Source of the DNA: a plasmid
DNA length: 64,000 nucleotides
Sequence record: NZ_CP010801.1
Direction: 5' to 3' (one strand)
Under the pieces are notes generated by a model. It was given only the letters and a program-made list of their open reading frames with translations. It ran no database searches and was not told the origin of the DNA. Positions within the stretch are counted from its first letter, which is position 1. Each line of letters opens with the position of its first letter. A program made the translations under genes and the position numbers. Of this stretch, positions 19,518-43,414 are shown piece after piece.

Positions 19518-19835
19518 ATGCAACTCAATCCCTCCAAACCGGTTCTGGGCATCGTCTCCACGCTTGCCTTCCTGTACTTGATTTACCTCTTCCTGACCGG
19601 TGATCCGCTGGAGAGGATCAACAGGACGTGCGCGCCATTGTTCCAGTGGCCAGCGAAGGTCGTTATTGGCGGAGTGCGAATCTTTTCCCCCGGCTCCGCA
19701 CAGGCAGTGGAATCCAAGTTCGATACCGGCTTCCAAACATGCCGGCAGTGGGTCTGGAATTCGTTCTATGCCGCCGACTACGCGCGTCTGCGGACTCGCA
19801 CTGCCGAGGACAATCGAGGCGGGGCCAACCAATGA
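19518..19835 (+). CDS. small membrane protein, hypothetical, translationally coupled to trbB
   Basis: 105 aa with one TM segment (VLGIVSTLAFLYLIYLFL). Its stop overlaps the trbB start (ATGA). Confidence 0.45.
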   Translation: MQLNPSKPVLGIVSTLAFLYLIYLFLTGDPLERINRTCAPLFQWPAKVVIGGVRIFSPGSAQAVESKFDTGFQTCRQWVWNSFYAADYARLRTRTAEDNRGGANQ

Positions 19836-20896
19836 AGCGCCCATGGGCAAGCCAGGTTGAAGAGGCGCAGCGGCTATTGTGGGATCGGCTGTCTGCGCTG
19901 CGCGAATATCTCGATGACTCGACTGTCACCGAAATCATGCTCAACCCGACGGCAGACGGCGAGATCCGCGTCTTCATCGAACGGGCTGGTCGCATGGCGA
20001 TGGTGGACGCACGCGTCGATCAGATGGCGGTGGATGCCTCTATCCGCGCAATCATGATGCTCAACGACAAGGACGTCGGTTCGCTGATGGATGCTCGCCT
20101 GGCCGGCGTACGGGTCGCGGCGGCACTCCCACCAGTGTCGATTCACGGCCCGATGCTCGTCATCCGAAAGCACGCATCCAGGCGCTTTCGCCTGGATGAA
20201 TATGTGCAGAGCGGTGCGTTTCTACCGGGCGGCGGGGCGGCTGGCCAGCAAACCGAGCACGGTATGACCGCGCAGCAAGATTTCGAGCATCAGGCTTCCC
20301 AGGGTGGGCGGGGGCTGCTGGAATTTATACGGTGGGCGGTGCAGGCCCAGCGCAACATCATTGTTTGCGGCGGCACCGGGTCGGGTAAGACCACGCTGCT
20401 GTCGTCGTGCATGCTTGAGGTCTCCCCCGACGATCGCGTGATCACTTGCGAGGACACCAACGAGATCGTGCTGGACCAGCCGAACGTCGTTCAGCTGGAA
20501 GCAAACGCCGCGCATGGCATCGGGATCCGCGACTTGATCCGCACCTGCCTGCGTTCGCGCCCCGATCGGATCATCGTTGGCGAAATTCGCGGCCCGGAGG
20601 CCTACGACTTCCTGGACGCAATGAACACTGGCCACGGCGGCTCGCTATGCACGCTGCATGCCGACTCCGCCTCCCTGGCACTTCAGCGTCTTGAATCTCT
20701 CATGCGTATGTCCCCGAACGCGGCCAACTTGCCGCTGCGCGACATGCGCGCCCAGATCGCGTCAGCAATCCACTACGTCGTCTTCCAGGCGCGGGTGGAT
20801 GGCGTGCGTGGCCCCCGCGAGGTCATCGGCCTCGACGGGATCGACGAGCGCGGTGAGTACCGCATCCGCCGCGTTTACGCGGCATCTTCCACCTGA
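19832..20896 (+). CDS. trbB: type IV secretion ATPase TrbB/VirB11
   Basis: Walker A IIVCGGTGSGKTTLL, Asp/His boxes, and the VirB11/CpaF-family core ...GEIRGPEAYDFLDAMNTGHGGSLCTLHA... Confidence 0.85.
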   Translation: MKRPWASQVEEAQRLLWDRLSALREYLDDSTVTEIMLNPTADGEIRVFIERAGRMAMVDARVDQMAVDASIRAIMMLNDKDVGSLMDARLAGVRVAAALPPVSIHGPMLVIRKHASRRFRLDEYVQSGAFLPGGGAAGQQTEHGMTAQQDFEHQASQGGRGLLEFIRWAVQAQRNIIVCGGTGSGKTTLLSSCMLEVSPDDRVITCEDTNEIVLDQPNVVQLEANAAHGIGIRDLIRTCLRSRPDRIIVGEIRGPEAYDFLDAMNTGHGGSLCTLHADSASLALQRLESLMRMSPNAANLPLRDMRAQIASAIHYVVFQARVDGVRGPREVIGLDGIDERGEYRIRRVYAASST

Positions 20897-20905
20897 GGTC
20901 TTTCC

Positions 20906-21235
20906 ATGAAAAAGCGCGTTCTCTTTCCGGCCCTGTTGCTCGCCACCCTGCCTGGCGCCTCGTGGGCGCAATTCAACGGCAATGGTTCCAGCGGCGTGGC
21001 CAGCGGCATCGTCGCCGGCATCTGCGGCTTCATCAAGCCGTTCGTCGGCTCGAACTCGCAGGTGCTGTCGGTGGTCTTCCTGCTCACACTGGGCGTGATG
21101 GTGCTGCTGTGGATGCTCAATGAAAACAAGGAAGGCGTGATGGTCTGGCTGCTGCGCACCGGCGTTGCGCTGGCTCTGCTGATCAACATCTTCACGCTGC
21201 CGCAGCTGATCGGCCTGCCGGCCGTCGCCTGCTGA
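20906..21235 (+). CDS. trbC: T4SS pilin TrbC/VirB2
   Basis: 109 aa with a signal peptide (ends ASWA-QF) followed by two hydrophobic segments, typical of VirB2 pilins. Confidence 0.75.
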   Translation: MKKRVLFPALLLATLPGASWAQFNGNGSSGVASGIVAGICGFIKPFVGSNSQVLSVVFLLTLGVMVLLWMLNENKEGVMVWLLRTGVALALLINIFTLPQLIGLPAVAC

Positions 21236-21241
21236 TCAGGC

Positions 21242-21550
21242 ATGCGCCAATCCTACGACTGCGAGGGCGTCAACACGCCCAAGACGATTGCTGGCGTCGA
21301 ATGGAAGATCGTCGTCGGTGTCGGCCTGTTCTTCGGCTTCGGCGCGCTGATGTACCGCGTGCCGCAAGTCCTGATCCTGCCGGCACTGGTCATCATGTTC
21401 CTGCGCGGTCCAGGCCTGCGCGATCCGTTCTTCCTGCGCGTCTATCTGCGCCACCGGGCGCACCGCGACCGGTACTCGCCGGCGTACTGCGCGCTTCCCA
21501 ACCTGCGTTTCCCACGCCCGCCCGGCTTCGGGCGGCGCAACTGGTTCTGA
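21242..21550 (+). CDS. trbD: T4SS protein TrbD/VirB3
   Basis: 102-aa small membrane protein lying between the pilin gene and the VirB4 ATPase gene. Confidence 0.7.
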   Translation: MRQSYDCEGVNTPKTIAGVEWKIVVGVGLFFGFGALMYRVPQVLILPALVIMFLRGPGLRDPFFLRVYLRHRAHRDRYSPAYCALPNLRFPRPPGFGRRNWF

Positions 21551-21553
21551 GCG

Positions 21554-24040
21554 ATGCCCCAAAACACGACATCTGAACTGCTGCCGTGGCTGTTCCTCGC
21601 CGATAACGCCGCGCGCGTTGTCACGTGCAAGGATTCCTCCCTGCTGTCCGCGTGGGACATGACCGGCATTGACATCGAGTCCAACGAGGTCGATGCGCTG
21701 GAGAACGCCGGCCTGCAGCTGGACGGCGCGCTGCGCCGCGTGGCCGAGGACGGCGCTACGGTCTGGGCGATCGTTGAGCGCGAGCAGGCCACAACGTACC
21801 CATCGGCGAGCTTTGATGTTGACGTGGCGGCGTACATCGACCAGCGCTGGCAGGAGCACCTGACCTCGACAAACCTGTACATCAACCGCCATACCCTGGC
21901 TGTCTCGATGCCTACCCGTGGCAATGCGGTGACACTGGGAGAGGCCGCTCGAGCATCCCTCGATGCCGGCCGAAGCTTGCCGCTGGCGCTCATCGATGCG
22001 CTCAAGACCAAATTCAAGCGCGGGCAGGAACTAGGTTTCTCGAACCGCGCCGACCTGGAACTCGCCCTGCGCCGTTTCGAGTCGACCATCGTGCCGGCCA
22101 TCGACCATGCGCTGCCCGATCTTGGCATGCGCCGCTTGGCAGGCGCGGATCTGCTGGGCTTCCTCAAGGCGTCGTTGTCGGTCAATCCGCGCGCTCCGGT
22201 GGCAGCCCATCCCGACGAATACCTGGACTCCCAGCTGTCGGATTCCTTCATCGACAACCGGTTTGCCGACTATCTGGTGATGGACGGCGTCAAGCGCCAG
22301 TACGTCGGTGTGTTCACACTGAAGACCGTGCCGCCAGCGAATTCGATGCAGGTACTCAACCCGCTTCTGGCGCTGCCCATGCGGCTGCGCATTGCCGCGG
22401 CGTGGCGATCCTATTCCGTCGCCGAAGCAGTGTCGTTCCTCGATTCGGCACGCACCTTCGACGAGATGCGTGCAATGGAGCTACGCAAGCTCGTCCGCAT
22501 GGCAGCAGCCCCGCAGGATGCGATCGACGGCGACGATACGCCCAAGACTAGCATCGGCGCCCAAGCCAAGGCGCTCAAGGACGATGCCAAGCGGCGTGTC
22601 GGGCGGTTCGGGGCGCTGGCAGCGTCCATCGCGGTCTACGCGGACACGCCCGACGAGTTGGAGCTCCGCATGGATATTGTCTCGCGTACGCTCGAGGCGT
22701 CGGGCATCGTCTTCATCCGCGAGAGGGAAGGCGCGCTTGCGGGCCTTTGCGTGGGCGTGCCGGGCAACGTACGCGATCCGGTGCGTTGGCACTTCGGCGA
22801 GGCTTCGAACATGACCGACGTGTCGCCCATCATTTCCCTTTTTTCCGGCAGCCAACATCACCCATCGATCGACGAGGACGGACAGCCAACACCGCCTAAC
22901 GCTACGCTGCGCTCGCGCTACGCGACGGTGCAATACTTCAACTACCACGTGGGGCAACTTGGCCACACGCTGCTTGTCGGCCCGTCTCGCAATGGCAAGA
23001 CGATGTTCCAGATGTTCCTGGAGGCGCAGTTCCTCAAGTACCGCAACAGCCGGATCTTCAACATCGACAAGGATCTGTCTTGCAAGCCGCAGACCCTGCT
23101 GCTCGACGGTGTGCACATCGATCTGGACCCGGCGCGCGGCAACGGCTTGCGCATGAACCCCGTGAGCATGGCCACGACCGAACACGGCCGTTCATGGCTC
23201 GTTGGCTGGCTGGACCGACTGCTCGGCCTGCGTGGCGACCAGTTGAGCACCCAGGATGTCAATGACCTGCACTCCGCCCTGGAGCGTGTCGGTGGCGTGA
23301 GTGGCGCGCGGCTCTCGACACTCATGTCGCAGCTGCCCTCACACCTACGCGCGCGGCTGCACCCGTGGGTGGAAGGCGGCGCCTACGGCCAGTATTTCGA
23401 CCATGCTGAGGATGAGTTCTCGATCTCGCGCATTACCACTACCGAGGTCGGATCGCTCCTGGCAGCCGGTTTGAACGATGTGGTCTCGGCGTACTCGGAA
23501 TACGCCTTCTACAGGATCGAGCGCTTCCTGATGGACCGTGAGGAAGACGAGCTCGGCCCGACGATGATCTATTTCGAAGAGGCTGGCTTCCTCCTGGACG
23601 ATCCTCGTTTTGCGGCCAAGGCGCGCGACTACCTGATGACGTTGGCCAAGAAGCGCGCATTTCTTGTCATGACGGCCCAGTCGCCCGAAACCTTCCTGCA
23701 TCAGCCTCAGCTGGCTGCCTCGATCCGCGACAACGTCGCCACGATTATCTTCCTGCCGAACCGCCTGGCCATCCGCCCGGAGCTCAGCAGCAAGTACCGG
23801 GAGGCATTCGGTCTGAACAACACCCAGATCGAACTCATCGCCGGCGCCGCGCCGCGCCGCGAATACTGCGTCTTCCAGCCGCAGACCGGTTTCTTCCGAG
23901 TGATGCAGGCACAGTTTCCACCCGAAATCGTCAACTGCCTGCGCAGTGACGTGCAGTCGCAATCGGTGCTTGAACGCACTTATGACCCCGCTGACCCCGC
24001 CTGGAAAGAGCGCTATCTCTCGGCGCTGGCAAACACCTGA
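21554..24040 (+). CDS. trbE: T4SS ATPase TrbE/VirB4
   Basis: 828 aa with Walker A GPSRNGKT and CagE/TrbE/VirB4 family conservation. Confidence 0.9.
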   Translation: MPQNTTSELLPWLFLADNAARVVTCKDSSLLSAWDMTGIDIESNEVDALENAGLQLDGALRRVAEDGATVWAIVEREQATTYPSASFDVDVAAYIDQRWQEHLTSTNLYINRHTLAVSMPTRGNAVTLGEAARASLDAGRSLPLALIDALKTKFKRGQELGFSNRADLELALRRFESTIVPAIDHALPDLGMRRLAGADLLGFLKASLSVNPRAPVAAHPDEYLDSQLSDSFIDNRFADYLVMDGVKRQYVGVFTLKTVPPANSMQVLNPLLALPMRLRIAAAWRSYSVAEAVSFLDSARTFDEMRAMELRKLVRMAAAPQDAIDGDDTPKTSIGAQAKALKDDAKRRVGRFGALAASIAVYADTPDELELRMDIVSRTLEASGIVFIREREGALAGLCVGVPGNVRDPVRWHFGEASNMTDVSPIISLFSGSQHHPSIDEDGQPTPPNATLRSRYATVQYFNYHVGQLGHTLLVGPSRNGKTMFQMFLEAQFLKYRNSRIFNIDKDLSCKPQTLLLDGVHIDLDPARGNGLRMNPVSMATTEHGRSWLVGWLDRLLGLRGDQLSTQDVNDLHSALERVGGVSGARLSTLMSQLPSHLRARLHPWVEGGAYGQYFDHAEDEFSISRITTTEVGSLLAAGLNDVVSAYSEYAFYRIERFLMDREEDELGPTMIYFEEAGFLLDDPRFAAKARDYLMTLAKKRAFLVMTAQSPETFLHQPQLAASIRDNVATIIFLPNRLAIRPELSSKYREAFGLNNTQIELIAGAAPRREYCVFQPQTGFFRVMQAQFPPEIVNCLRSDVQSQSVLERTYDPADPAWKERYLSALANT

Positions 24041-24050
24041 GGAGTACATC

Positions 24051-24851
24051 ATGCGCATGCGTAAAGCCGCTATCGCCCTTATCTCGCTGTTCGCCGCGGT
24101 CTCGCTAAACGCGCGCGCAGGTAGTGTCGCCGGCACCGGCGGCTCTACAGAAATCACGCAGTTGCTGAACCATGTTGAGCTCATAACGCAGTCATCCAAC
24201 ACGCTCAACACGGTGCGCAATACGCTGCAGTCGGCGATGTCTCTGCAGCAAAGCCTCCAGCAGTTGGACCCGTCGACCCTGGCGAACCTCTCTGGGCTGC
24301 CGATGGATCAGCTGAACCAGATGATGGGGCTGTACAGCCAGGTCAACAATACCTTGCAGGCCTACCAGTATCTGCAGTCGCAGATGCAGAGCTTTAAAGA
24401 CGGTGTGCAATACACCGGCATGAGCCCGATGCAGTACCTGAAGACGCAGGCCTACGCTGCCCAGCGCTTGGGCGGGGCGTACCAGACCATTTACCAGGGC
24501 GAAATGAGCGCGTTGCAGAACGCAAACCAGCAGCAAACGGCGCTCCAGCAGTCGGTTGCCGCAATACCTGGCGTAACCGGTCAGGTCCAAGGACTGCAGC
24601 AGGTGCTCTCTCTTGGCGCGCAGCAACAAGCAACGAATCTGCAAGTCCTGCGTGAGATGCAGCTGGCCAACACCATGGCCTCGATGAAAGCCCAGAACGA
24701 CGCCAACGACATGCAGGCGAGGGCTACCGCCGCACAGACCAAATACCAAAACTTCGTTCAATCGCGACAAGCCGCAGCACAGCAATCTGCGCAGGATCTG
24801 CAATTGCCCGATCCGACCCAGATCAACCTCACCGGGGCAAACAAGCTGTGA
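24051..24851 (+). CDS. trbJ: TrbJ/VirB5-like secreted coiled-coil protein
   Basis: 266 aa from the internal ATG (MRMRKAAIALISLFAAVSLNARA...). It has a signal peptide and a Q/L-rich coiled coil, and sits where trbJ is expected. Confidence 0.65.
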   Translation: MRMRKAAIALISLFAAVSLNARAGSVAGTGGSTEITQLLNHVELITQSSNTLNTVRNTLQSAMSLQQSLQQLDPSTLANLSGLPMDQLNQMMGLYSQVNNTLQAYQYLQSQMQSFKDGVQYTGMSPMQYLKTQAYAAQRLGGAYQTIYQGEMSALQNANQQQTALQQSVAAIPGVTGQVQGLQQVLSLGAQQQATNLQVLREMQLANTMASMKAQNDANDMQARATAAQTKYQNFVQSRQAAAQQSAQDLQLPDPTQINLTGANKL

Positions 24852-25147
24852 GAGGACCGGAAAAGGTCGCGGTCGGCTGGCTATGCCGTACGACGCATGA
24901 GGCAAAAGTGGTCCTGCGGGCGGCCCGCCAAGCCGCCATACAGATCGAGGCAGGCGGCAGCGAGGACCGCACGATCCGCTTCTATGAGAAGCGCGGAAAG
25001 CGGCGCAAGGAGTCATTGCGCCTCGCGCTCGCCTATTTGGCACTGCGCGAGCTTTACCTTCGACCGGCTTTTTGGCTGGTTGTGATTTTGGGAGCGATCA
25101 CGCTGTACGGCGTCGCGATCGCTTTCGGTCTGCGTCACCTGTTTTGA
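24848..25147 (+). CDS. small protein at the trbK position (possible entry-exclusion-like), hypothetical
   Basis: 99 aa with a GTG start overlapping the trbJ stop and a C-terminal TM helix. It has no lipobox. Confidence 0.35.
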   Translation: MRGPEKVAVGWLCRTTHEAKVVLRAARQAAIQIEAGGSEDRTIRFYEKRGKRRKESLRLALAYLALRELYLRPAFWLVVILGAITLYGVAIAFGLRHLF

Positions 25148-25156
25148 GGGATTCGA

Positions 25157-26770
25157 ATGTCTGCGATTGCAAACTGGAGTAGTTTGGCGACGCTACTGTC
25201 CGGAGTGTTCGATCAGGCCAGCAGCATGTCAACGACGCTCGTTGGCCTGGGCAAAACCATGCTGGCGATCGCCTTCCTGCTGCCGCTGCTATCGGCGCTT
25301 CTGGCCTTCTGGGTCAAAGGTGGCGCGCAAGACTTTCTGGCATCCACGATTCGCCTCCTGCTGGTTGCGTCGATTCCCCTGGCGGCATTGGCTAGTTGGC
25401 AATCTACAGCCTCGACCCTATCGAATTTCTTCCAGCAGGAAATCCCGAGTGCGCTCGGCTACGGCGGTGGAACCGACGTCGTGAAAACGGCGGTCGCGAG
25501 CTTGTTAAATGCCGCGAACAGCGTCGGATCGTCTACCGACAGCGGAACAGGCACGTCCGACGCGACCACTGCGACTACAAACGCCGATCCGATCTTCGCC
25601 GGCGACCCGCTGATTACGTTGCCCGCCAACGATGGCAACGCCCAAACGCCGCCTAAGACGGCGCCGAGCGCGGCGTCATCCATCTTTGACCTGGGCGGGT
25701 TGTTGACCAACCTGTTCTTGCGAGCGCTGAGCATCTTCCTGATTGACTTGCCGGCTCTCATCCTGTCACTGGCCGCCATGCTCACGATCTATGGGACGCT
25801 GCTGATGATGTCCATTGGCATCATCTTCGGGCCGATTCTGATTGCCTGGCTGCCGTGGGAGCCACTGTCCTCACTGGCAACCAACTGGCTCAAATACATG
25901 CTCTCCGCCGGGATGGGCTTCGCCGTGGCGATTGTGTTCCTGAAGCTGAGCAACAACATGATTGCTGGACTCGCCAGCAACATGCAGAGCCTGCACAGCA
26001 TGCAGGGCGCCACGTTGGCAGGCGCCATCCAGCAGATGTTTGTCACCGGCCTCGGCCTTCTCTTCCTCGCTTTCATGGTGTTCAAGGCTGAACATCTCGG
26101 CGCGGCGCTGATTGGCGGGCCGCATATCGGTGGTGGCGGCTTCCTCGCCGGCGCGGCAATGGGCGGAGCCCTGCGTGCAATGCGCGGCGGTGGAAAGAAA
26201 AACAATGGTGACAAGGAAGGCGGAAGCAATCAGTCCGCAGGTGGAGCTCCCGGTGGCGGCAGCGGTGGATCTGGCGGCGGGGGAGCGGCCGGCGCAGGTG
26301 GCGCAGCCTCGAGCAGTTCGGCGAACCTGTCGAATCAGGCAGGCGCGGTCTCGGCCACGAATGTTTCAGGAGCCGCCGGCGCAGCCGTCGCAGCTGGCGG
26401 GGCAATGGCTGGCAACACTGCCGCAGGCGCAGCGGGGGCTGGCAGTTTTGGTAGCACGGCAAAGGCTGTCGGGGGGGCGGCCGCCAAGGATGGCAGCAAG
26501 GCACTCGGCAAAGCGGCCGTTAAAACCGCACTCGCCGCGGCAGCCATCGCTGGCGGGCCGGCAACCGCCGCCGCAGTCGTTGGTGGCGCGGTTTCAATGA
26601 AGGCCGGGCGAAAGTACCTGAAGAACGTGCATACGCGCCTACAGCAGGGAGGGGCAGCACCGTCAGCCACTCAGTCCGGTTCGGCCGCTGCGCCTGTCAG
26701 CCTCCCCAAGACCGGCCAGGGTGCAAAGGTCAACCAACCGGCTGCGAACGACGGCGAGGCCAATTCGTGA
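25157..26770 (+). CDS. trbL: T4SS protein TrbL/VirB6 with a Gly/Ala-rich C-terminal tail
   Basis: 537 aa with multiple TM helices and a long GGxGGAAGAGGA low-complexity C-terminus, as in TrbL of Tn4371-type elements. Confidence 0.8.
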   Translation: MSAIANWSSLATLLSGVFDQASSMSTTLVGLGKTMLAIAFLLPLLSALLAFWVKGGAQDFLASTIRLLLVASIPLAALASWQSTASTLSNFFQQEIPSALGYGGGTDVVKTAVASLLNAANSVGSSTDSGTGTSDATTATTNADPIFAGDPLITLPANDGNAQTPPKTAPSAASSIFDLGGLLTNLFLRALSIFLIDLPALILSLAAMLTIYGTLLMMSIGIIFGPILIAWLPWEPLSSLATNWLKYMLSAGMGFAVAIVFLKLSNNMIAGLASNMQSLHSMQGATLAGAIQQMFVTGLGLLFLAFMVFKAEHLGAALIGGPHIGGGGFLAGAAMGGALRAMRGGGKKNNGDKEGGSNQSAGGAPGGGSGGSGGGGAAGAGGAASSSSANLSNQAGAVSATNVSGAAGAAVAAGGAMAGNTAAGAAGAGSFGSTAKAVGGAAAKDGSKALGKAAVKTALAAAAIAGGPATAAAVVGGAVSMKAGRKYLKNVHTRLQQGGAAPSATQSGSAAAPVSLPKTGQGAKVNQPAANDGEANS

Positions 26771-26802
26771 TGGCGCGCGCGCAGGGCGTCGCTGTCAAGC
26801 GA

Positions 26803-27294
26803 TTAAGTGCGGCGGTCGGCCATCAGGTGCGCGCCAGCGCTCGACACTTTCTCGGCGGCACGCAGGATGTAGTAGCTGACAACGGCAAGCAGGAACATGC
26901 CGAACACGCCCATGACAAAAATCGACTGGACCATCTCGCTCAGTGTGTTCGGCTTGGGTGCATGGCGCGCAAGGCCGATGTAGCCGCACACGATGGCCAA
27001 CCCCGCAAGCATGATGAGGCGTCGCACCAGACTGCCCGCGCGCGTCTGCATAGGGGTCGCGAAAGACGCCATGACCAGGAACATGGTCGCACCCGTGAAA
27101 AGGGCGCCCACGACCAACCACGGCGAGTGCTTTTCATTGGCCAGAAAGAGGTCGGCGAGCGGGCCGACGGTCAGGGCCAGCGGCAAGGCGCACGCAAGTG
27201 CAAAGCCGCCCGCATCGGAGAGCGCGGTGCCGATGGTTTCCAGAAATTCCCGGTGCAACAAGGCTCGCATGCGATGTTGGCTCGGATGGTTCAT
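26803..27294 (-). CDS. membrane protein (4 TM), hypothetical, opposite strand inside the trb operon
   Basis: 163 aa with clean hydrophobic helices. The overlapping plus-strand ORF is Arg-rich and looks like an antisense artifact. Confidence 0.5.
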   Translation of the reverse strand: MNHPSQHRMRALLHREFLETIGTALSDAGGFALACALPLALTVGPLADLFLANEKHSPWLVVGALFTGATMFLVMASFATPMQTRAGSLVRRLIMLAGLAIVCGYIGLARHAPKPNTLSEMVQSIFVMGVFGMFLLAVVSYYILRAAEKVSSAGAHLMADRRT

Positions 27295-27455
27295 GGCTCA
27301 GTTTCCTTTCGTTATGTAGCAACCATGTTGATCTACGATGTGTTGCGCGAGTTAATACTAGCACACCGTCCTAAGATGGTTGTCATCGCTCGGCGAGCGA
27401 CCCGACGCCGTTGCGAGCGCGCCGCACCGATTCTTTGAGACTTGAGGAGTTATCT

Positions 27456-36037: not shown

Positions 36038-37852
36038 ATGATGCGTCTGCTGACGGCGAAAGCCGGCTTTCAGCCCGAAGACCCCACGAACGGCGCCCGT
36101 GCGTCCGTTGCTGGGGTAATCGAGCCTCCAATGCGCGCTGAATTGCCTGCTTTGCCAGAGGTGCTTCGCGATGTAGTCGTAATCGATCCATCGCCGCAGG
36201 AAGATACGCGGGCGGGCTTGGAAGCGATCGCTCTGGCCATGCGGTGGATCGACCAGCGAGACGTTCAAAGTGCGCCACCACACAACGCCGACACGGAAGA
36301 CTTCGAGCGCCTGACGTTCATTTCCAAGTTGCTCGATGCCGATCAGATCCGCATCGCCAAGACGTTGCGTCATGTCGTCCTCTACGTGGACGAGCGGTAC
36401 ACCGCGCACCCAGCGCTCCTCATGTGGCGCAAAGACGCCTCAGACCTTGGTTTCTTCTGCATCACCCAACCCAGGGAGTTGAAGGAACTGAGAGAGGACA
36501 AGGTTCGCCTGAGCGCCGCAAGTAACGTACAGCGCGACTCGGCAAACCTTTCGACGCTAAATGCTGCGCGCGACCTCATCTTGCACGGCGCTGCCCTCGG
36601 GGCGAGCGATCTGCATATCCTGCTGCGCGAGGACATCGCCGAGGTGCAATACCGAGTCAAAGGCGCGCTTCGCTCGGCGCTGCAAATGAGCCGCGACGAG
36701 GGCGAGGCCTACATCCGTTCGATGTACACGGGACTTTCCTCGGTCAAGGAAGCGATCTACAACCCGTTTGAATTTCAAGACGCCCAGATCAACGGTTCGG
36801 ACCTGCCCGGAAGCGGCTTGGCGTCAGTGCGGATCATCCGGGGACCAGCCTACCCTGTGGAGACGGGCGGCGGCTTCCTCGTCGCACGCTTGCAACCACT
36901 GAAGAAGAGCACAGGTCAAGCGGACGTGACACGGATTCCGTTCACGCTCAGGACACCGCGCTCTCCGCTCGGCTCCCTGCCGCTCAAGCAGATGGGGTAC
37001 TCCGATTTGCAGGTCCGACTCCTGGAGCGTATGACGCGTATGCCATCGGGCGTCATCGTCGTTACGGGGCCGACGGGTAGCGGAAAGACGACAACCCTGT
37101 ACGAGCTCCTCAAGCATCAAGCCAGGCAGTTCCCTGACAGCCGCCAGATCACCATCGAGAACCCTGTCGAGTACCCGATGGATTGGTCGGTGCAGCTGCC
37201 CGTAACAAAGTCCTCGAACCTGTCTTTCGGCGATATGGTGCGTATGACGCTGCGGATGGACCCGGACGTCGTGCTCGTAGGCGAACTGCGCAGCGCTGAT
37301 GAAGCCGTGGCCGCCCTGCAAGAGGCAATGACCGGCCACCTTGTCTGGACGACGCTTCACGTGAACGACCCATTCATGACAATCGACCGCATGGAAATGC
37401 TCGATCGCGGGCAGTTGTCGCGCGAGATCATCTGCGATCACAAACTGCTGCGCGGATTCGTGGCGCAGCGCCTGGTGCCGGTGCTGTGCGATCACTGCAA
37501 GCGTCCCTTGACCGAGATCGCTGAGGATCTTCCCGCGGATATGCTCGACGCGCTGGAGACCTGGGGGCCGATCGATTCCATGCGGGTGCGCGGCGCAGGT
37601 TGCGACCATTGCCATGACGAGAAGATCCAGGGCGTAACCGCTGTGGCCGAGGTAGTGGAAACCAGCGCAGCACTGATGCGCGACTTCATCAAGCTTGGCA
37701 CCGACGAAGCCCGTCGGCAACAACGCCAGCGAGAAGGGGCCGACCTGTCCATGCTCAGTAACGCAATGGTCGGGGTTCTCAGCGGCCGATTCGATCCGCG
37801 CGACGTCGAGCGCGCCGTAGACATCATCACCACGAAAGGAGCACAAGATTGA
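36038..37852 (+). CDS. pilQ: type IV pilus assembly ATPase (GspE/PilB family; PilQ of R64/PAPI-1-type clusters)
   Basis: Walker A VVTGPTGSGKTTTLYELL, the GspE signature and a C-terminal Cys cluster (CDHCKRP...CDHCHDE). Confidence 0.85.
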   Translation: MMRLLTAKAGFQPEDPTNGARASVAGVIEPPMRAELPALPEVLRDVVVIDPSPQEDTRAGLEAIALAMRWIDQRDVQSAPPHNADTEDFERLTFISKLLDADQIRIAKTLRHVVLYVDERYTAHPALLMWRKDASDLGFFCITQPRELKELREDKVRLSAASNVQRDSANLSTLNAARDLILHGAALGASDLHILLREDIAEVQYRVKGALRSALQMSRDEGEAYIRSMYTGLSSVKEAIYNPFEFQDAQINGSDLPGSGLASVRIIRGPAYPVETGGGFLVARLQPLKKSTGQADVTRIPFTLRTPRSPLGSLPLKQMGYSDLQVRLLERMTRMPSGVIVVTGPTGSGKTTTLYELLKHQARQFPDSRQITIENPVEYPMDWSVQLPVTKSSNLSFGDMVRMTLRMDPDVVLVGELRSADEAVAALQEAMTGHLVWTTLHVNDPFMTIDRMEMLDRGQLSREIICDHKLLRGFVAQRLVPVLCDHCKRPLTEIAEDLPADMLDALETWGPIDSMRVRGAGCDHCHDEKIQGVTAVAEVVETSAALMRDFIKLGTDEARRQQRQREGADLSMLSNAMVGVLSGRFDPRDVERAVDIITTKGAQD

Positions 37853-38898
37853 AATTCTTTAAGCCCGGGCTGTCTTGGTCGACGCGCAAGATGCTATATC
37901 AGCAGTTGGCGTCGCAGCTCGACAACGGCCGTCCGCTCGTCGAGGCAATGGAGGACTTCCGCGATCGATTGGCGAGACGCGGGCGTAAAGGGCTGGCACA
38001 GGCGATGCGTGAAGCCACCAGTTGCCTGAAAGACGGAAAGACCTTTGTGCAGTCGATGGGGCCAACGCTCTCGCCAATGGAGCGCAGTGTGCTGGCATCT
38101 GGCGAGAAGGCAGGCCAGTTGACCAATTCGATGCGCCTGGTGCTCGACGTTCGCGATCGTGTAACGCGCATACAGCGCAAGGTGATGAGCTACTTCACCG
38201 CACCGATTGTGTACCTGATCACTCTGCTGGCCTCGTTGTACGTCATCGGCTCAAGCGTTGTACCGCCACTGGCGCAGGTAGTGCCTGTAAGCAAGTGGAC
38301 GGGATGGGCCTATGGGATGTATCTGATGGGAGCCGTCGCAACGGGATGGGGGATGGTAATTACGGTTTCCCTCCTGGTCGTGCTAGGCGCCACGGTCATC
38401 TGGTCACTTCCACGCTGGACGGGCAGGGGACGAGCCTTTTGCGACCAATATGTCTTTCCCTACAACGTCTATCGCGAAGTGCAGGGCTTTGCATGGCTGC
38501 TGTCGTTCACCGCGCTTTTGCGCGCGGGCGTGCCAGACACCACCGCACTGCAAGATCAGCTGACATCAGCCTCACCGTGGCTCGCGTCGCGCTTGCGACC
38601 TGTGATGATCGGTTTGCGCGACGGCCTTAACTTGTCGGCCGCACTGCGCCGAACCGGGCTGGGCTTCCCCTCGATCGACCTGATCGATGAAGTTGCCGCC
38701 TACATGAACTTCCCGGATTTTCCGGAAAAGATTGACAACGTTGCGCGGGACTACTCCGAATTCCTGGAACGCAAGATGATGATCATCGGCGGAGCAATCG
38801 GCGGCGTGTTCTCGATGGCCATGTTTATGGCCTTTGGTGTCATCACCATCGGTGCCAATACGATTTCGGATCTCATCACAAAAAGCGTTGGAGCGTAG
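37849..38898 (+). CDS. pilR: type IV pilus inner-membrane platform protein (GspF/PilC family; PilR)
   Basis: 349 aa with a TTG start after AAAGGA. It has a GspF-like cytoplasmic domain plus three TM helices. Confidence 0.75.
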   Translation: MKFFKPGLSWSTRKMLYQQLASQLDNGRPLVEAMEDFRDRLARRGRKGLAQAMREATSCLKDGKTFVQSMGPTLSPMERSVLASGEKAGQLTNSMRLVLDVRDRVTRIQRKVMSYFTAPIVYLITLLASLYVIGSSVVPPLAQVVPVSKWTGWAYGMYLMGAVATGWGMVITVSLLVVLGATVIWSLPRWTGRGRAFCDQYVFPYNVYREVQGFAWLLSFTALLRAGVPDTTALQDQLTSASPWLASRLRPVMIGLRDGLNLSAALRRTGLGFPSIDLIDEVAAYMNFPDFPEKIDNVARDYSEFLERKMMIIGGAIGGVFSMAMFMAFGVITIGANTISDLITKSVGA

Positions 38899-39090
38899 TG
38901 CCGGGGCGTTCGTAACAATTGAGTGTTGACATGGTGTCCTATTGGGCTTTTTTTTGCTTTACAATCTTCTAAGGATGCGCAACAGCCCAACTTACAATCT
39001 GTCGTTTGATTGTCAGCGTTATCGCGTCGTACGGCTACTGTGCTTGGTAGTTCCTGTCCCCCAATATTCTTTCTTCTGTGAGGTCATTCG

Positions 39091-39615
39091 ATGGATTCAA
39101 TTCTTGGTCGTATCGCTGCGACCGTTCTCGGCCTGTTGGTTCTTGCCGCAGTTGGTCTGGGCATCTACAAGGCGTTCTCAGGCAACAAGGTCGGTCAGAC
39201 CACCACTGATCTGAGCTTGCTGCAAACCAACGCGCGCGCGCAGTACAGCCAGGGTGCTAACGGCTACGCGAACTTCAACGTCGCAGCTGGCACGCCGACC
39301 GCTGGCATTGTGGATTCGACCGGTAATTCGGCGGTCATTCCGACCGACATGCTGCGTGCAGGCCGGGTCGTGGACGCATGGGGTAATGACGTGACGATCG
39401 CTCCTACGTCGAACAACCAGCAATTCGCTGTGACGGTTGGCGGCACGGGTCTGACCGCAAGCCAGTGCTCGCAGATCCTCACCAGCCTGACGGGCTGGAC
39501 CCGGGTTGCCACAAGCACCGGTCAGAGTTTCACGACCGGGAATCCCCCCGATGCCACAACCGCCGGCGCTGCGTGCATGAACGACGGCGAAACCATTACG
39601 GTCACTATGCAATAA
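39091..39615 (+). CDS. putative major pilin (PilS-like)
   Basis: 174 aa with an N-terminal hydrophobic helix (RIAATVLGLLVLAAVGLGIY), Gly/Thr-rich composition and two C-terminal Cys residues. It follows a 190-bp intergenic region. It has no canonical GFxxxE prepilin motif. Confidence 0.45.
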   Translation: MDSILGRIAATVLGLLVLAAVGLGIYKAFSGNKVGQTTTDLSLLQTNARAQYSQGANGYANFNVAAGTPTAGIVDSTGNSAVIPTDMLRAGRVVDAWGNDVTIAPTSNNQQFAVTVGGTGLTASQCSQILTSLTGWTRVATSTGQSFTTGNPPDATTAGAACMNDGETITVTMQ

Positions 39616-39718
39616 ACCGTTTCGCTATCGTCAATACGGCCGGCGCAGCCGGCCGTTGCCTTTCTACCGTATTCCCGCTTTACCCCGACAACCACAGCGC
39701 GCAGAAGACCGTCGTGAC

Positions 39719-40753
39719 ATGCATCTGACCCCGCCTACGCCGACCGACGACGCGGTCATCAGTGCCATCGATCCTGCCGAGGCGGATGGGGCGGCGTCGC
39801 GCCTCGCGTTCCTTGAATTCTCCGACCTGTACCTGGAGCCTAACGGTGCCGCTTGGTACAAGACCGCACCGGACGACAACGTTCGCAACACCCTGGAAGG
39901 CCCATATCTTGAGGATGTGCAGTATCTGCGCGAGCAGTTGCTCAAGCACGTCGGAAGCGTGGATTTTCTGATGGACATCCAGGGGGTACGACTGCGCGTG
40001 CAGTGCATCTCCACAGTCGACGGCGACGTGTATGTGTGCCGCCGAGCCGCGAAGACACCGATGCCGGTAGAACGGCTGGGCTACCCGGCAGAATTGATCA
40101 AGTCGCTCCTGTCTGACGCATTCACTGGCGGTGGCCTCATTCTGTTCACAGGTGCCACCGGCAGCGGAAAAAGCACATCGCTCGCCTCCATATTGGCCGC
40201 GCGCCTGAAGTTGTTTGGCGGGGTGGCGTGGACTGCTGAAAATCCGGTCGAGACGCTGCTCCATGGCACGCATGGTTCTGGCGTCTGCTACCAAACTGAA
40301 GTACCTCGCGATGAGGATTTTGGGATGGCCATCCAGCGCATGTTGAGGGGCGCGCCGAACATCATCGTCATTGGCGAGATCCGCAGCGCTAAAGCTGCGG
40401 CTCAGGCCGTACTGGCGGGCACGAGCGGACATCTCGTGTTGTCCACGCTGCACGCCAACGACATCCAGTCTGCGCTGCATCGTCTCAAAAGCATGCTCGT
40501 CCACGAAGGACTGGATGGTGCGTTTCTTGGCGACGCTATGGGGGCAGTGCTGCATCAATCGATGTCTTATGCGCGCGCACCAGATCGCAACCGTCGCGTC
40601 GTGACCGTGTCTCCTCTCATCGTAGCCGGCAGCCGTAACGCTACGGCCATCCGCGCGCATATGCGCGGCGGCGAATTTCATCAGCTGTCCTCGGAAATCG
40701 AACGCCAGAAACGGGTGCTACTGATTCCCGGGCAAGCAGGAGGAATGCTATGA
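39719..40753 (+). CDS. PilT-like type IV pilus ATPase (second GspE-family ATPase of the cluster)
   Basis: Walker A ILFTGATGSGKSTSLASIL and the Walker B / His box ...IIVIGEIRSAKAAAQAVLAGTSGHLVLSTLHAND... Confidence 0.8.
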   Translation: MHLTPPTPTDDAVISAIDPAEADGAASRLAFLEFSDLYLEPNGAAWYKTAPDDNVRNTLEGPYLEDVQYLREQLLKHVGSVDFLMDIQGVRLRVQCISTVDGDVYVCRRAAKTPMPVERLGYPAELIKSLLSDAFTGGGLILFTGATGSGKSTSLASILAARLKLFGGVAWTAENPVETLLHGTHGSGVCYQTEVPRDEDFGMAIQRMLRGAPNIIVIGEIRSAKAAAQAVLAGTSGHLVLSTLHANDIQSALHRLKSMLVHEGLDGAFLGDAMGAVLHQSMSYARAPDRNRRVVTVSPLIVAGSRNATAIRAHMRGGEFHQLSSEIERQKRVLLIPGQAGGML

Positions 40754-41229
40754 GCTTCGCGTGGGTGCCGATGGCCCTCATGATCTTCTTCGCCGGCCTG
40801 ATTGCACAAGCATTCGACACCGCCCAGGCGGTGCCCGGGGCGGGCGCCGCCGGCCAAATGCAGGCTGTCGCTCGCGTGCGCGCGCAGCAAATCGCCGTAT
40901 TCAGCTCTGCCTGCTCGCAAGCCGCAACGGCGAGTCCAGGTCTGGTATCTCCCAATATCGCAGTCGCACTGCCCAACGGGGTTGCCATTGCGCCAGGCGC
41001 TACATGCATGACCACGTCTGCGCCCGGCGGAGGGCGCTACGTCTATGCATGGATGCCGGCCAATGGAGGCACTTCCGCACAGGTCTATGCCATCACCCAA
41101 AGCGACCGGGCTTGGTGGCGCGTAACTGCCACGGGCATCGGCACAAATATGACGGATGCACAGACGCTGGCCTTCCCGGCGAGTATCACGGCGCCTGCCA
41201 TCGTGCGCTTTACCCAAGTCAACCCGTAA
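40750..41229 (+). CDS. pilin-like small protein, hypothetical
   Basis: 159 aa with an N-terminal hydrophobic helix (VPMALMIFFAGLIAQAF). It is coupled to the pilT-like gene. Confidence 0.4.
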   Translation: MSFAWVPMALMIFFAGLIAQAFDTAQAVPGAGAAGQMQAVARVRAQQIAVFSSACSQAATASPGLVSPNIAVALPNGVAIAPGATCMTTSAPGGGRYVYAWMPANGGTSAQVYAITQSDRAWWRVTATGIGTNMTDAQTLAFPASITAPAIVRFTQVNP

Positions 41230-41239
41230 GGAATTCATT

Positions 41240-42778
41240 GTGGACGCAATCATAGGATTCATCGCCGCACTCACGCTCTCTTTGCTGAGCATGGCGGGGT
41301 TCGCAAAGTACGCCGACATGGGTGTGCGCAACATTCAGACTTCAGCGATCGCCAGCCAGGGCCGCGTCATTGACCAGGCTGCTGCGCAATATGTGCAGGA
41401 CAACGCAGCTGCTCTGGCCGCGAGCGTGCCCGTAGGTGGCGCAGCCACAACGATCTCCGTGAACACACTCCAGACTGCGGGTTACTTGCCGGGCGGATTT
41501 TCGGCAAACACTGCGTTTGGCCAGACGTGGCAGGTGCAAGTCTCGCAGCCCACTGCTGGGAGGTTGCAAACCATCGTCATGACGACAGGCGGCAATCCGA
41601 TCACCAACACCGCACAGCTTGCAGGCATTGCTGCGCAGATTGGGGCAGAGGGTGGTTTCGTGCCATACGCCAATCAAGGTGGTAACTCAGCAATGAGCCC
41701 ATCCAACGCCAACGGCGCGTTTGGCGCGTGGCAGGTGAACCTGGGTGCGTCCGGTTTCACCAACGCCGGCTCTGGCCACGTCGCCAACCTGCTGGCCTTC
41801 ACCAGTCAGCAGTCCAACGCCAACTACCTGTATCGCGTCTCGGTGCCAGGCCATCCTGAGTTGAACGCAATGCAGACCGACCTCTCGATGCAGGACGTCG
41901 GCGGAACAGCACACAACATCGCCGGCGCAAACAACGTCACGGCCGGCGGCACGGTGACCGGTGGCAAGCTTGTTTCAAACGGTGACGTGAACGCAGCTGG
42001 CAATGCCACGATCAATGGCACCCTCAGCGCTGCGGCCGGCCGCGTTACCGCCTGGAATAATGCGGCAGAGGGTGGGGTCATCACGATGCAAGGCGCCAAT
42101 GGCGTCAACATGTACGTCGAGAACCTCAACGGGACTTTGCGCCTGGTCAACAGTCCCTGGAACGCGCAGCTGCTGACTGTTGACCAGTCGGGCAACACCG
42201 TGGCCAACGGCGGAGTTTCGTCGACAAACGCGCCGGGCTACGGGCAGACCACCTTGAATCAGTGGGGCCTTGCAAGCACGGGTGACATCTATGTCGAACC
42301 CGCCAACGGCCACAACCTGAATTTGAGCACTACGGCGTGGAATGGAACCGGGCAGCTGAACAGCCAATTCGCTCAAAACTGGTTTCAGCATCGCGTCGTC
42401 GCGAATGAATATCTTCAGGTCAATGGGGGAGCCAGTCCGAACACGTCGTGTTCTCCGAATGGTATTGCCGCGGTGAATGCTGACGGATCCGGCCAATGGC
42501 TGAATTGCGTCTTTGGCACGTGGAAGCCGATTGGCGGCAATCTGCTGCGCTATGGCAAATACACAGCGACCCACGGGACGTACATTCCAGCGCCCTCGTG
42601 TCCTGCAGGCGGTACGGCCATGATTGTGGTCACGCCGGCCAATTTCTCAGTCGATACAACCACGACTGTCAATTATGGCGCTTGGGGATCCGGACCTTGG
42701 ACGGTGTACATCGTCGATGGCGCGTCGTCTCCACTTTGGGGTGCAACGGCCGCAGTCGGAACGTATTGCGGTTATTAA
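41240..42778 (+). CDS. PilV-like pilus tip adhesin / minor pilin, large Gly/Asn/Thr-rich protein
   Basis: GTG start 8 nt after AAGGA. It has an N-terminal hydrophobic helix (AIIGFIAALTLSLLSMAGF). About 510 aa are beta-rich and low-complexity, as in thin-pilus adhesins. Confidence 0.5.
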   Translation: MDAIIGFIAALTLSLLSMAGFAKYADMGVRNIQTSAIASQGRVIDQAAAQYVQDNAAALAASVPVGGAATTISVNTLQTAGYLPGGFSANTAFGQTWQVQVSQPTAGRLQTIVMTTGGNPITNTAQLAGIAAQIGAEGGFVPYANQGGNSAMSPSNANGAFGAWQVNLGASGFTNAGSGHVANLLAFTSQQSNANYLYRVSVPGHPELNAMQTDLSMQDVGGTAHNIAGANNVTAGGTVTGGKLVSNGDVNAAGNATINGTLSAAAGRVTAWNNAAEGGVITMQGANGVNMYVENLNGTLRLVNSPWNAQLLTVDQSGNTVANGGVSSTNAPGYGQTTLNQWGLASTGDIYVEPANGHNLNLSTTAWNGTGQLNSQFAQNWFQHRVVANEYLQVNGGASPNTSCSPNGIAAVNADGSGQWLNCVFGTWKPIGGNLLRYGKYTATHGTYIPAPSCPAGGTAMIVVTPANFSVDTTTTVNYGAWGSGPWTVYIVDGASSPLWGATAAVGTYCGY

Positions 42779-42790
42779 CGGGAGGGAAAA

Positions 42791-43414
42791 ATGAAGCGGA
42801 TTTTGCGGATTCTTCTGTTGGGTCTGTTGTTGTTCGGTGCGCGCGCCGCGCTGGCCAACCCCACGCTCTGTTCGCCTGGCTATCAGGACTCGACGTGCGT
42901 CACGCCGATCAGTCACGGGGCGATTCCAGCCCCCCAGTGCTCGACCGATGCAGGATGGACTACGATTTCCAACGCAGTCTGGTTGGGGGCGCAATGGAGC
43001 CAGCCGCAGTGCAATTATCAGGCTCCGCCTGCTTGCCCGGCCGGTTACACCCAAACGAGCCCACCTTCGTGGAACGGATCGAGTTGGAGTGCGCCAGGAT
43101 GTTCACCGCCGGTCGCCGCCAACCCTCAGCCGACGCTGACCTGTCTCTACGACTATAACCACAATGTTCGGTTAGCACCATATGGGAATTGCACAGCTGA
43201 TGGGGGCTGTGACGGTATGGCATTGCAGGTCATGTGGGGTGGGAACGGCTTTCAGACCGTCGTATTTCAATTTTGGCCGAACGACTACACTGTGACTGAC
43301 ACAGACATCAACCAAGCGCTTGCCGGAACCGGTTACAGCCGCGGAGCTTTTATGGCGGGCGGCGGCGGCAACGGGAACGCGTCAGCATCCGAGTCGTGGC
43401 AGGTTTGCCACTAG
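42791..43414 (+). CDS. secreted Cys-rich protein, hypothetical
   Basis: 207 aa with a signal peptide, 14 Cys residues and repeated CSP/CP motifs. Confidence 0.45.
   Translation: MKRILRILLLGLLLFGARAALANPTLCSPGYQDSTCVTPISHGAIPAPQCSTDAGWTTISNAVWLGAQWSQPQCNYQAPPACPAGYTQTSPPSWNGSSWSAPGCSPPVAANPQPTLTCLYDYNHNVRLAPYGNCTADGGCDGMALQVMWGGNGFQTVVFQFWPNDYTVTDTDINQALAGTGYSRGAFMAGGGGNGNASASESWQVCH

Follow-up and report, generated by a model that had tools for sequence, protein, structure and literature searches.

A predicted MPF_T-family secretion cluster joined head to tail to putative type IVb pilus genes in plasmid record NZ_CP010801.1

Gene content, order and spacing of the cluster

A 64,000-nucleotide stretch of plasmid sequence record NZ_CP010801.1 (the window) was examined for a gene cluster in which a type IV secretion system (T4SS) gene set is followed by a type IVb pilus (pil) gene set. 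Open reading frame (ORF) lists, start codons and spacing define a run of closely packed plus-strand genes from 19.5 to 43.5 kb, and family calls were made by Pfam and NCBIfam hidden Markov model (HMM) searches of the window proteins (Table 1). The T4SS genes are ordered VirB11, VirB2, VirB3, VirB4, VirB5, a small gene, VirB6, VirB8, VirB9 and VirB10. VirB10 is followed by a lipoprotein (the junction lipoprotein), a TcpQ-domain protein, the PilN secretin, PilO, PilP, an assembly ATPase and a platform protein, and the run then continues with a pilin, a PilT-sized ATPase, a 159-aa protein, PilV and a Cys-rich protein before a terminator.

The run starts earlier than position 19832, the left edge given in the first-pass annotation, as a conserved 105-aa gene overlaps the VirB11-like start by 4 bp. 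This gene has coding-type GC content at third codon positions (GC3 of 0.72), and it is called as a gene in 96%-identical relatives (L016–L018; related loci carry the prefix L throughout), while its product had no Pfam match. Further downstream, VirB9 and VirB10 overlap by 1 bp, and the 3-bp gap reported between trbI and a lipoprotein gene was seen at 30579/30583. From the lipoprotein to the platform gene, the successive 4-bp overlaps described earlier are all reproduced with TTG or GTG starts; if a nearby ATG is preferred, as is possible for PilP and PilQ, the junction becomes a 1-bp overlap or an 8-bp gap. The single intergenic gap noted before the pilin gene measures 192 bp (38899–39090), and the order and plus-strand orientation of the genes beyond it were as described. 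The end coordinate of 43414 was likewise corroborated by the terminator that ends the cluster there, which has an A-run and a T-run on its flanks and may work in both directions.

The cluster is not the single translationally coupled 23.6-kb super-operon that had been proposed, because a minus-strand gene (26803–27294) lies inside the T4SS block and the 192-bp gap precedes the pilin gene. It consists of at least two units, VirB11 to VirB6 and VirB8 onwards, and the gap is likely a third start, serving as a separate promoter or leader for the pilin block. Consensus promoter and terminator scans performed no better than shuffled controls and failed to detect the real terminator, probably owing to pairing between its A-run and T-run. 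The spacer at 38899–39090 is AT-richer than its surroundings; it includes a T-run and an exact TTGACA, but no correctly spaced consensus promoter could be identified in it. A GC-rich hairpin 20 nt past the pilin stop is a possible attenuator on weak evidence, its folding energy (−18.3 kcal/mol, z only −1.6) not being statistically distinctive. An Rfam scan of the window gave no match.

A minus-strand gene between VirB6 and VirB8

The first-pass gene list was essentially right, with all of its genes on the plus strand in the stated order, except for one mis-called gene. The plus-strand ORF at 26767–27438, which had been taken as a trb gene (trbF), has codon-position GC values of 0.75/0.48/0.61, an antisense pattern, and is the antisense shadow of the minus-strand ORF at 26803–27294. 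The latter has values of 0.62/0.46/0.79, the pattern of every real gene here, and is the gene chosen by gene callers in 96%-identical relatives such as L016. The trbF and trbG labels consequently move to the two plus-strand genes that follow, which encode the VirB8/TrbF and VirB9/TrbG homologues.

Every relative examined has a minus-strand gene of 74–163 aa between VirB6 and VirB8 (Table 1). No mutual sequence similarity was found among the opposite-strand proteins of different relatives, and their length also varies. Genes of T4SS clusters that are fixed in position but variable in sequence are often exclusion or immunity factors; that the product of 26803–27294 is such a factor is only a guess.

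Classification of the T4SS

Homologues of VirB6, VirB8, VirB9, VirB10 and VirB11 all scored above the gathering thresholds of Pfam TrbL, VirB8, CagX, TrbI and T2SSE, respectively. Together with VirB4, the window thus contains the clustered VirB4/6/8/9/10/11 homologues by which the mating-pair-formation type T (MPF_T) is recognized. The VirB2-, VirB3-, VirB5- and TrbK-position proteins of the window had no HMM match in Pfam or NCBIfam and are putative assignments from position, size and hydrophobic pattern. The 102-aa counterparts of the VirB3-position protein in L019 and L041 gave a weak PF05101 VirB3 match, and the 99-aa TrbK-position gene is called in L016/L017.

The system had been labeled a Tn4371/IncP-type Trb system. 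Its gene order is indeed Trb-like, but the label was rejected, since scores fall far below the TrbB, TrbE, TrbF, TrbG and TrbI cut-offs and the best VirB4 relatives are MOBH/MPF_T plasmids. No T4SS protein of the window reaches the NCBIfam equivalog cut-offs for either Trb or VirB. The VirB11-like ATPase scored 214 bits with TIGR02788 VirB11 (cut-off 250) and 206 with TIGR02782 TrbB_P (cut-off 305); VirB4 scored 254 bits with PRK13873 TrbE (cut-off 1020); VirB9, whose start is at 28274 or 28316, scored 72 bits with TIGR02781 VirB9 (cut-off 218); and the remaining Trb scores relative to cut-offs were 32/152 (TrbF), 53/181 (TrbG_Ti) and 110/386 (TrbI, PRK13831). The VirB11 and VirB9 models score slightly above their Trb counterparts on the window proteins. 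No trbH was found between G and I in the window, and the minus-strand gene sits between L and F. Among 72,556 plasmids in PLSDB, the best VirB4 matches were only 29–32% identical and belong to MOBH/MPF_T plasmids (pTK9001, an Azonexus plasmid and the pHG1 group), and the plasmids closest to the window are typed MPF_T by PLSDB. Judged by these homologies, the T4SS is a divergent MPF_T system with Trb-like gene order.

Type IVb pilus genes

HMM searches confirmed the earlier family calls for the secretin, PilO, PilP, the assembly ATPase, the platform protein and PilV. PilN matched TIGR02520 over its full length with 271.1 bits, under the cut-off of 287.65, and is 41–42% identical to the PilN proteins of pHG1 and Ralstonia. 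The 357-aa protein encoded before it has a local match to the TcpQ domain of the 411-aa TcpQ-family protein of R721, which occupies the IncI2 PilL position. The assembly ATPase scored 162–182 bits with the GspE, TfpB and PilB models. Although the pilin (39091–39615) had no Pfam or NCBIfam match, it is of the same N-terminal type as the pHG1 pilin (MDGILGRI). Both PilS (MDSILG) and PilV ((M)DAIIG) have a six-residue leader followed by (R/F)IAA, with no Glu at +5. These family matches place the pilus genes with those of R64-type IVb pili.

The second ATPase gave its best score with TIGR01420 pilT_fam (121 bits, under the cut-off of 319). Its closest solved chains are PilU and PilT, its size of 344 aa fits PilT/PilU, and genes for 39–45% identical ATPases occupy the same spot in several Burkholderia plasmids, such as pTY921B. 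The R721 pil cluster has no PilT-sized ATPase. From these similarities, the protein may be a pilus retraction motor.

The genes around pilV also have counterparts in pHG1. The 159-aa protein is 39% identical over its full length to that of a 159-aa gene before pilV, and the C-terminal half of the Cys-rich protein is homologous to the product of a 162-aa gene after it. Beyond the pil block, a convergent CAP-domain gene is found in pHG1, MolK2 pm01, pTY921B and pSBC1_4; an R. insidiosa plasmid has the CAP-domain gene on the same strand, and several metagenome loci also carry one. A shufflon-bearing PilV was considered and rejected, as no repeated inverted 19-bp sfx-like sites were found around pilV and no Rci homologue was detected by tblastn in the window. 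None of the cluster genes matched A24 peptidase, SLT or PilM in Pfam, and neither the R721 peptidase nor the pHG1 transglycosylases found anything in the 64-kb window when used as tblastn queries.

Table 1. Positions of features in the window and of minus-strand counterparts in related loci
Feature	Position	Strand	Evidence or remark
105-aa membrane protein	19518-19835	+	True first gene of co-directional run
VirB11/TrbB-like ATPase	19832-20896	+	Pfam T2SSE 1e-39
VirB2/TrbC-position protein, candidate T4SS pilin	20906-21235	+	109 aa; signal peptide, two hydrophobic segments
VirB3/TrbD-position protein (putative)	21242-21550	+	102 aa; position and size
VirB4/TrbE ATPase	21554-24040	+	TIGR00929 VirB4_CagE 8e-89, 299 bits (cut-off 643)
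VirB5/TrbJ-position secreted protein (putative)	24051-24851	+	266 aa; signal peptide, position
TrbK-position protein (putative)	24848-25147	+	99 aa; C-terminal transmembrane segment; 4-bp overlap with preceding gene
VirB6/TrbL	25157-26770	+	Pfam TrbL 33.3 bits (cut-off 25.9)
Multi-pass membrane protein	26803-27294	-	163 aa; splits T4SS block
VirB8/TrbF	27456-28250	+	Pfam VirB8 4.6e-22; GAGGAG before ATG
VirB9/TrbG (CagX family)	28274-29227	+	Pfam CagX 5.6e-34; possible lipobox ISAC
VirB10/TrbI	29227-30579	+	Pfam TrbI 3.4e-42; NF038091 VirB10 121 bits (cut-off 220)
Junction lipoprotein	30583-31395	+	270 aa; lipobox LAGC
Secreted protein with C-terminal TcpQ domain	31392-32465	+	357 aa; Pfam TcpQ 2e-20
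PilN-family lipoprotein secretin	32462-34177	+	Pfam Secretin and Secretin_N_2 above cut-off; lipobox MVGC
PilO, type IVb accessory protein	34174-35421	+	Pfam PAP_PilO 2.6e-35, 122.5 bits (cut-off 26.7)
PilP	35421-36029	+	TIGR03021 pilP_fam 45.8 bits (cut-off 34.65)
PilQ-type assembly ATPase, GspE/PilB class	36038-37852	+	604 aa; Pfam T2SSE 3.3e-57, 194 bits
PilR-type platform protein, GspF family	37849-38898	+	Pfam T2SSF, two stretches, 1.2e-22, 80.7 bits
Major pilin, PilS-type	39091-39615	+	41% identity to annotated pHG1 prepilin; C-terminal Cys pair
GC-rich hairpin, possible attenuator	39636-39656	+	Weak evidence
PilT-sized second ATPase, candidate retraction ATPase	39719-40753	+	344 aa; T2SSE ATPase
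Conserved 159-aa protein	40750-41229	+	N-terminal hydrophobic helix
PilV-type minor pilin/adhesin	41240-42778	+	Pfam Shufflon_N 5.5e-20, 72.5 bits (cut-off 27.5)
Secreted Cys-rich protein	42791-43414	+	10 Cys
Intrinsic terminator	43434-43461	.	-20.6 kcal/mol, z -3.55; closes cluster
CAP-domain lipoprotein	43479-44534	-	Pfam CAP 9.5e-7; convergent; syntenic marker of pil-cluster family
tnpA genes or fragments	357-2783, 2992-5919, 6026-6532, 14365-17340		
EAL+DUF3330 gene	7226-8683		
merA	8828-10513		
Counterpart in VirB6-VirB8 gap, L003	6553-6795	-	
Counterpart in VirB6-VirB8 gap, L004	3490-3714	-	
Counterpart in VirB6-VirB8 gap, L006	6530-6775	-	
Counterpart in VirB6-VirB8 gap, L016	14744-15235	-	
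Counterpart in VirB6-VirB8 gap, L019	13085-13369	-	
Counterpart in VirB6-VirB8 gap, L040	18908-19357	-	

Comparison with known plasmids

Megablast of the whole region against the 72,556 plasmids returned no match and protein-level searches were needed, in which the closest PilN matches came from Ralstonia, Cupriavidus and Burkholderia plasmids (37–46% identity). The joined arrangement, which had not been recognized in the first-pass annotation, proved to be already known and widespread: it is present in pHG1 (C. necator H16), R. solanacearum MolK2 pm01, pTK9001 (Thioalkalivibrio sp. K90mix) and the Azonexus hydrophilus plasmid NZ_CP151407, occurs in interleaved form in R721, and was found in 7 of 14 assessable metagenome loci, with some of the sequenced plasmids having been studied. 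The window is a rare, deep-branching member of this group.

In pHG1, as in the window, VirB8, VirB9 and VirB10 run on, with overlaps, into pil genes on the same strand. The pHG1 junction consists of a transglycosylase, a VirB9-like protein, a second transglycosylase and a TcpQ protein, followed by PilN, PilP and PilO, and its pil end comprises an ATPase, a platform protein, pilins, the 159-aa protein, PilV, a small protein and the convergent CAP gene; the layout of MolK2 pm01 is the same. Direct comparison shows the pil block of the window to be orthologous to that of pHG1 (PilN 41%, PilS 41%, the 159-aa protein 39%, the tail protein and the CAP gene; 39–44% overall). The T4SS halves are arranged differently, being in tandem in the window with the small opposite-strand gene between them, whereas the pHG1 half from VirB11 to VirB6, together with TraI and TraD, runs divergently; TraI is also found by the divergent half of pm01, and TraD at that place is shown for pHG1. 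The VirB9-like and TcpQ proteins are separate in pHG1, while one lipoprotein contains both domains in the window. Unlike pHG1, the window has no lytic transglycosylase genes at the junction (two in pHG1), no relaxase or coupling protein near the cluster and the reverse order of PilO and PilP. It has the second, PilT-sized ATPase that pHG1 lacks and the Burkholderia plasmids possess. A pil locus by trb/tra genes in the pMOL28/pHG1/pRALTA backbone has been mentioned and its function doubted (PMC2864759).

The orientation of the window is matched by pTK9001 and the Azonexus plasmid, in which VirB11 to VirB10 and then pil genes are all co-directional, running through a lipoprotein or TcpQ protein, PilN-PilO-PilP, the ATPase and the platform protein, after which pTK9001 has a pilin-like T2SS gene. 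Overlapping junctions from VirB10 through the lipoprotein and TcpQ genes to PilN in the Azonexus plasmid are like those of the window, and its lipoprotein shares an N-domain resembling the VirB9 C-terminal domain (CTD). Sequence divergence is large, with VirB4 30–32% identical between the window and these two plasmids and the Azonexus PilN 30% identical. Both plasmids have MobH, TraD and DUF4400 directly upstream of VirB11, a contiguous set that is absent from the window and from the flanks of its close relatives, and no opposite-strand gene is annotated in them between VirB6 and VirB8, unlike the window. The Azonexus plasmid carries an AAA ATPase gene within its T4SS block and, at the end, a gene for PilM. 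The window thus carries pHG1/pTK9001-type markers both in its pil tail (the 159-aa protein before pilV, the small secreted protein after it and the CAP gene beyond) and at its junction, where VirB8-VirB9-VirB10 is followed by same-strand VirB9-CTD-like/TcpQ proteins and then PilN.

The IncI2 plasmid R721, which likewise joins an MPF_T T4SS to pilus genes, has pilL-pilM, virB1-B11, virD4 and pilN-pilV in one contiguous co-directional block, interleaved rather than head to tail as in the window. IncI2 also has a PilT lytic transglycosylase, a PilU prepilin peptidase, a MOBP relaxase, and a shufflon with a site-specific integrase gene (Rci-type recombinase) nearby, none of which were found in the window. 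The T4SS of R64 (IncI1), whose thin pilus is the reference for type IVb conjugative pili, is of the Dot/Icm-like MPF_I type. R64 has counterparts in the window for PilN, PilO, PilP, PilQ, PilR, PilS and the N-terminal constant region of PilV; compared to R64, the window has no detectable PilM, PilT transglycosylase, PilU, Rci or shufflon, and has a six-residue pilin leader and the extra PilT-sized ATPase. Not all related plasmids are fused: in an R. insidiosa plasmid the pil block lies upstream of the T4SS with other genes between, and in Caballeronia pSBC1_4 it adjoins replication genes.

Occurrence among relatives

Homologues of the junction lipoprotein are scarce, with only 16 clusters among 5.8 billion proteins and a single locus, in a Lysobacter metagenome-assembled genome, recovered by scanning 185,579 species genomes with the junction-protein alignment. 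The VirB11-like protein, by comparison, gave more than 130 clusters at E ≤ 1e-60, of which about 90 exceed 50% identity. Every context retrieved for a junction-protein homologue showed the same gene order, which is kept where the junction protein is 33–48% identical (L003, L004/5, L006/7, L008, L016, L019, L036 and L037). In a metagenome scan with a narrower PilN alignment, used because the alignment with the most distant members was too divergent, 19 loci were obtained. Half of those with enough upstream DNA (7 of 14) have same-strand VirB8-9-10 immediately upstream, as do five of eight after removal of near-duplicates, and the window-type layout is also present in metagenome loci L036 and L037.

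From 17455 onward the window backbone is collinear with contigs L016–L018 at 90–92% nucleotide identity. Logan entries for the 96%-identical relatives are SRR32392774 and SRR13325294. Neighboring genes in the relatives are plasmid-like (primase, toxin–antitoxin genes, a TraR-like zinc finger and HU), and their backbone upstream of the cluster contains a transglycosylase, HU and other small genes at the place occupied in the window by a Tn3/mer mosaic. The VirB11-like proteins of L020 and L041 are 59% identical to that of the window, and in these two loci an AAA ATPase and a small Ntox17 toxin-domain gene lie between VirB6 and the remaining T4SS genes (L020, 17145–19732; L041, 17811–20410). The AAA ATPase of the Azonexus plasmid is encoded at the corresponding place.

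Proposed role in conjugation

We judge it probable that the region is the mating apparatus of a plasmid-like element, belonging to an MPF_T family in which an R64-like type IVb pilus cluster comes immediately after the outer-membrane half of the T4SS (VirB8-9-10). This MPF_T-plus-pilus family is broad and mostly uncharacterized. By analogy with IncI plasmids, the most likely role is conjugation with a type IVb pilus for mating-pair stabilization. In IncI2 plasmids the type IV pilus is needed for transfer in unstable conditions such as liquid and the gut (PMC7508951; PMC9045228), and for TP114 this requirement, through mating-pair stabilization, was shown by experiment (PMC7508951). In the proposed scheme the T4SS would form the DNA-transfer channel, while the PilS fiber, the PilV tip adhesin, the PilN secretin with its TcpQ-domain partners and the PilO/P/Q/R machinery would catch recipient cells, and the pilus would keep mating pairs together in liquid or under shear. 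Retraction of the pilus may be the task of the extra PilT-sized ATPase. With the genes from VirB8 to the platform protein so tightly spaced, both envelope machines would be co-expressed, and the pilin block would stand under its own 192-bp leader region. Conjugation is supported by the closest annotated complete plasmids by VirB4, in which MobH, TraD and DUF4400 are contiguous upstream of the run, and by the plasmid-like genes that neighbor the cluster in its relatives.

The junction lipoprotein

The protein at the point where the two gene sets meet has weak Pfam matches to CagX (residues 44–110) and TcpQ (184–248). An AlphaFold2 model built from a 16-sequence alignment predicts two confidently folded domains (predicted local distance difference test, pLDDT, about 90) behind the lipobox, a VirB9-C-terminal-like beta sandwich (~41–127) and a TcpQ/BfpG/N0-like domain (~179–267), with a disordered linker of ~50 residues between them. 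The top Foldseek match of the model was the R388 TrwF/VirB9 CTD (7o3j_B, 1.5e-5), and further VirB9-CTD matches were X. citri VirB9, CagX and pKM101 TraO, all from solved core complexes. Other matches of the model were the X. citri VirB7 N0 domain and BfpG (9u5s_R, BfpB–BfpG secretin complex); going by the Pfam domain order, the first domain presumably accounts for the VirB9 matches and the second for those to BfpG and N0. The N-domain resembles, as a paralogue, the VirB9 CTD of its own cluster. The same N-domain recurs in the protein encoded next after VirB10 in pHG1, pm01 and the Azonexus plasmid, more weakly in that of pTK9001, and in the protein that heads the pil block of pTY921B. Both domains are kept in 16 of 16 family members, with 43 invariant columns.

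The predicted domain pairing suggests a link between two outer-membrane assemblies. As an addition to the conjugation scheme, the lipoprotein could be an adaptor that docks its VirB9-C-terminal-like domain on the T4SS core complex and its TcpQ/BfpG-like domain on the PilN secretin, so that the T4SS channel and a possibly retractile pilus would be built side by side as one envelope assembly. The origin of the structural matches in solved core and secretin complexes, the paralogy with the VirB9 of the same cluster, the recurrence after VirB10 in three other plasmids and the conservation of both domains across the family speak for such a role. Against it, N0/TcpQ-like domains are found in true T4SS lipoproteins too, as the X. 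citri VirB7 match illustrates; the Azonexus counterpart is placed in the DotD/TraH family by the Prokaryotic Genome Annotation Pipeline (PGAP). The lipoprotein could belong wholly to the T4SS, as a VirB7/TrbH substitute, or equally wholly to the pilus, simply as its first gene. In L024–L026 a homologue stands first in the pil cluster and the upstream DNA that was fetched has no match to VirB8-10, and in L021 VirB10 is followed by TcpQ and PilN without a junction-type protein. On balance we regard the adaptor role as unlikely; the hybrid lipoprotein itself is the one lead that merits pursuit.

Alternatives to conjugation

Several observations weigh against assigning a conjugative function. No relaxase, coupling protein, DUF4400, prepilin peptidase or lytic transglycosylase was found in the 64-kb window by Pfam or tblastn (relaxase and coupling-protein queries MobH, TraI, TraD and VirD4), the rest of the replicon lying outside it. 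No relaxase or coupling protein was found by tblastn in eight related loci and none is annotated in two more, flanks of up to 10 kb on each side having been covered for these ~10 loci; two relatives carry a transglycosylase homologue detected by tblastn. The left flank is replaced by the Tn3/mer mosaic up to about 17455, and the element may be damaged. The promoter and terminator scans were uninformative on the proposed co-transcription. Finally, L020 and L041 have an Ntox17 gene within their T4SS blocks, which leaves room for non-conjugative use in part of the family.

These gaps could mean that the T4SS–pilus module is non-conjugative in this lineage and serves adhesion, effector delivery or DNA release, a relaxase and coupling protein having been lost or never present. 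The AAA ATPase and Ntox17 genes of L020 and L041 would fit such a use, as would the CAP-domain and Cys-rich secreted proteins conserved at the cluster end. However, the other known occurrences of the PilV (Shufflon_N) family and the PilN/O/P set are in conjugative elements, MobH and TraD adjoin the same cluster in the closest annotated complete plasmids, and the surroundings are plasmid-backbone-like. The missing genes also have to be read against the reach of the data, as the relatives are visible for only 10 kb on each side and the left flank of the window is a transposon insertion. We consider a non-conjugative module decidedly unlikely.

That the head-to-tail layout is a recent accidental juxtaposition with no functional meaning, brought about for example by the Tn3-family elements immediately left of the cluster, is extremely improbable and was rejected, because the order, including the tight VirB10-lipoprotein-TcpQ-PilN junction, is kept where the junction protein is only 33–48% identical, the layout recurs in Betaproteobacteria and Gammaproteobacteria plasmids with VirB4 about 30% identical, and the transposon mosaic stops at about 17455, 2 kb short of the cluster.

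Flanking regions of the window

Positions 1–17454 of the window are a mosaic of Tn3-family transposons and mercury-resistance genes, which also includes genes for an EamA transporter and a tyrosine recombinase. A backbone gene for a TraR-like zinc-finger protein is cut at the right end of the mosaic, and collinearity with L016/L017 begins at 17455. Downstream of the cluster, 45875–49672 has a cargo-like content: a bactofilin-domain protein, a 213-aa protein with no Pfam match, a flavoprotein oxidoreductase, an R2K-clade ATP-grasp protein and a secreted non-specific DNA/RNA endonuclease. A C5 cytosine DNA methylase, a DUF5131 (phage Gp37/Gp68-like) protein, a PAPS-reductase-domain protein and an IS1595-family transposase are encoded within 54880–60690, and a DUF7673 protein at 61170–61814.

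Discussion

The arrangement itself carries little weight, as T4SS genes leading into pil genes are already present in the pHG1-family megaplasmids, pTK9001 and the IncI2 plasmids. What the window adds is a deep and rare branch, with a VirB4 at most 32% identical to that of any PLSDB plasmid and one match in 185,579 species genomes. The linkage of VirB8-9-10 to pil genes is an old, conserved trait of environmental plasmids in Betaproteobacteria and Gammaproteobacteria, and no functional study of it was found in the literature searched. Papers on TP114 and on Ralstonia T4SSs offered no useful information on how the genes are organized.

Several parts of the cluster are open to experiment. These include the lipoprotein with T4SS-type and secretin-partner-type domains, the PilT-sized ATPase in a conjugative pilus cluster, pilins with six-residue leaders and no dedicated peptidase, and the position-conserved opposite-strand membrane gene in the T4SS block. 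Most of the value of the locus lies in the hybrid lipoprotein at the junction and in the additional ATPase. If the adaptor role of the lipoprotein were true, the co-ordering of VirB8-10 and pil genes across this plasmid superfamily would mirror a physical coupling of the two machines.

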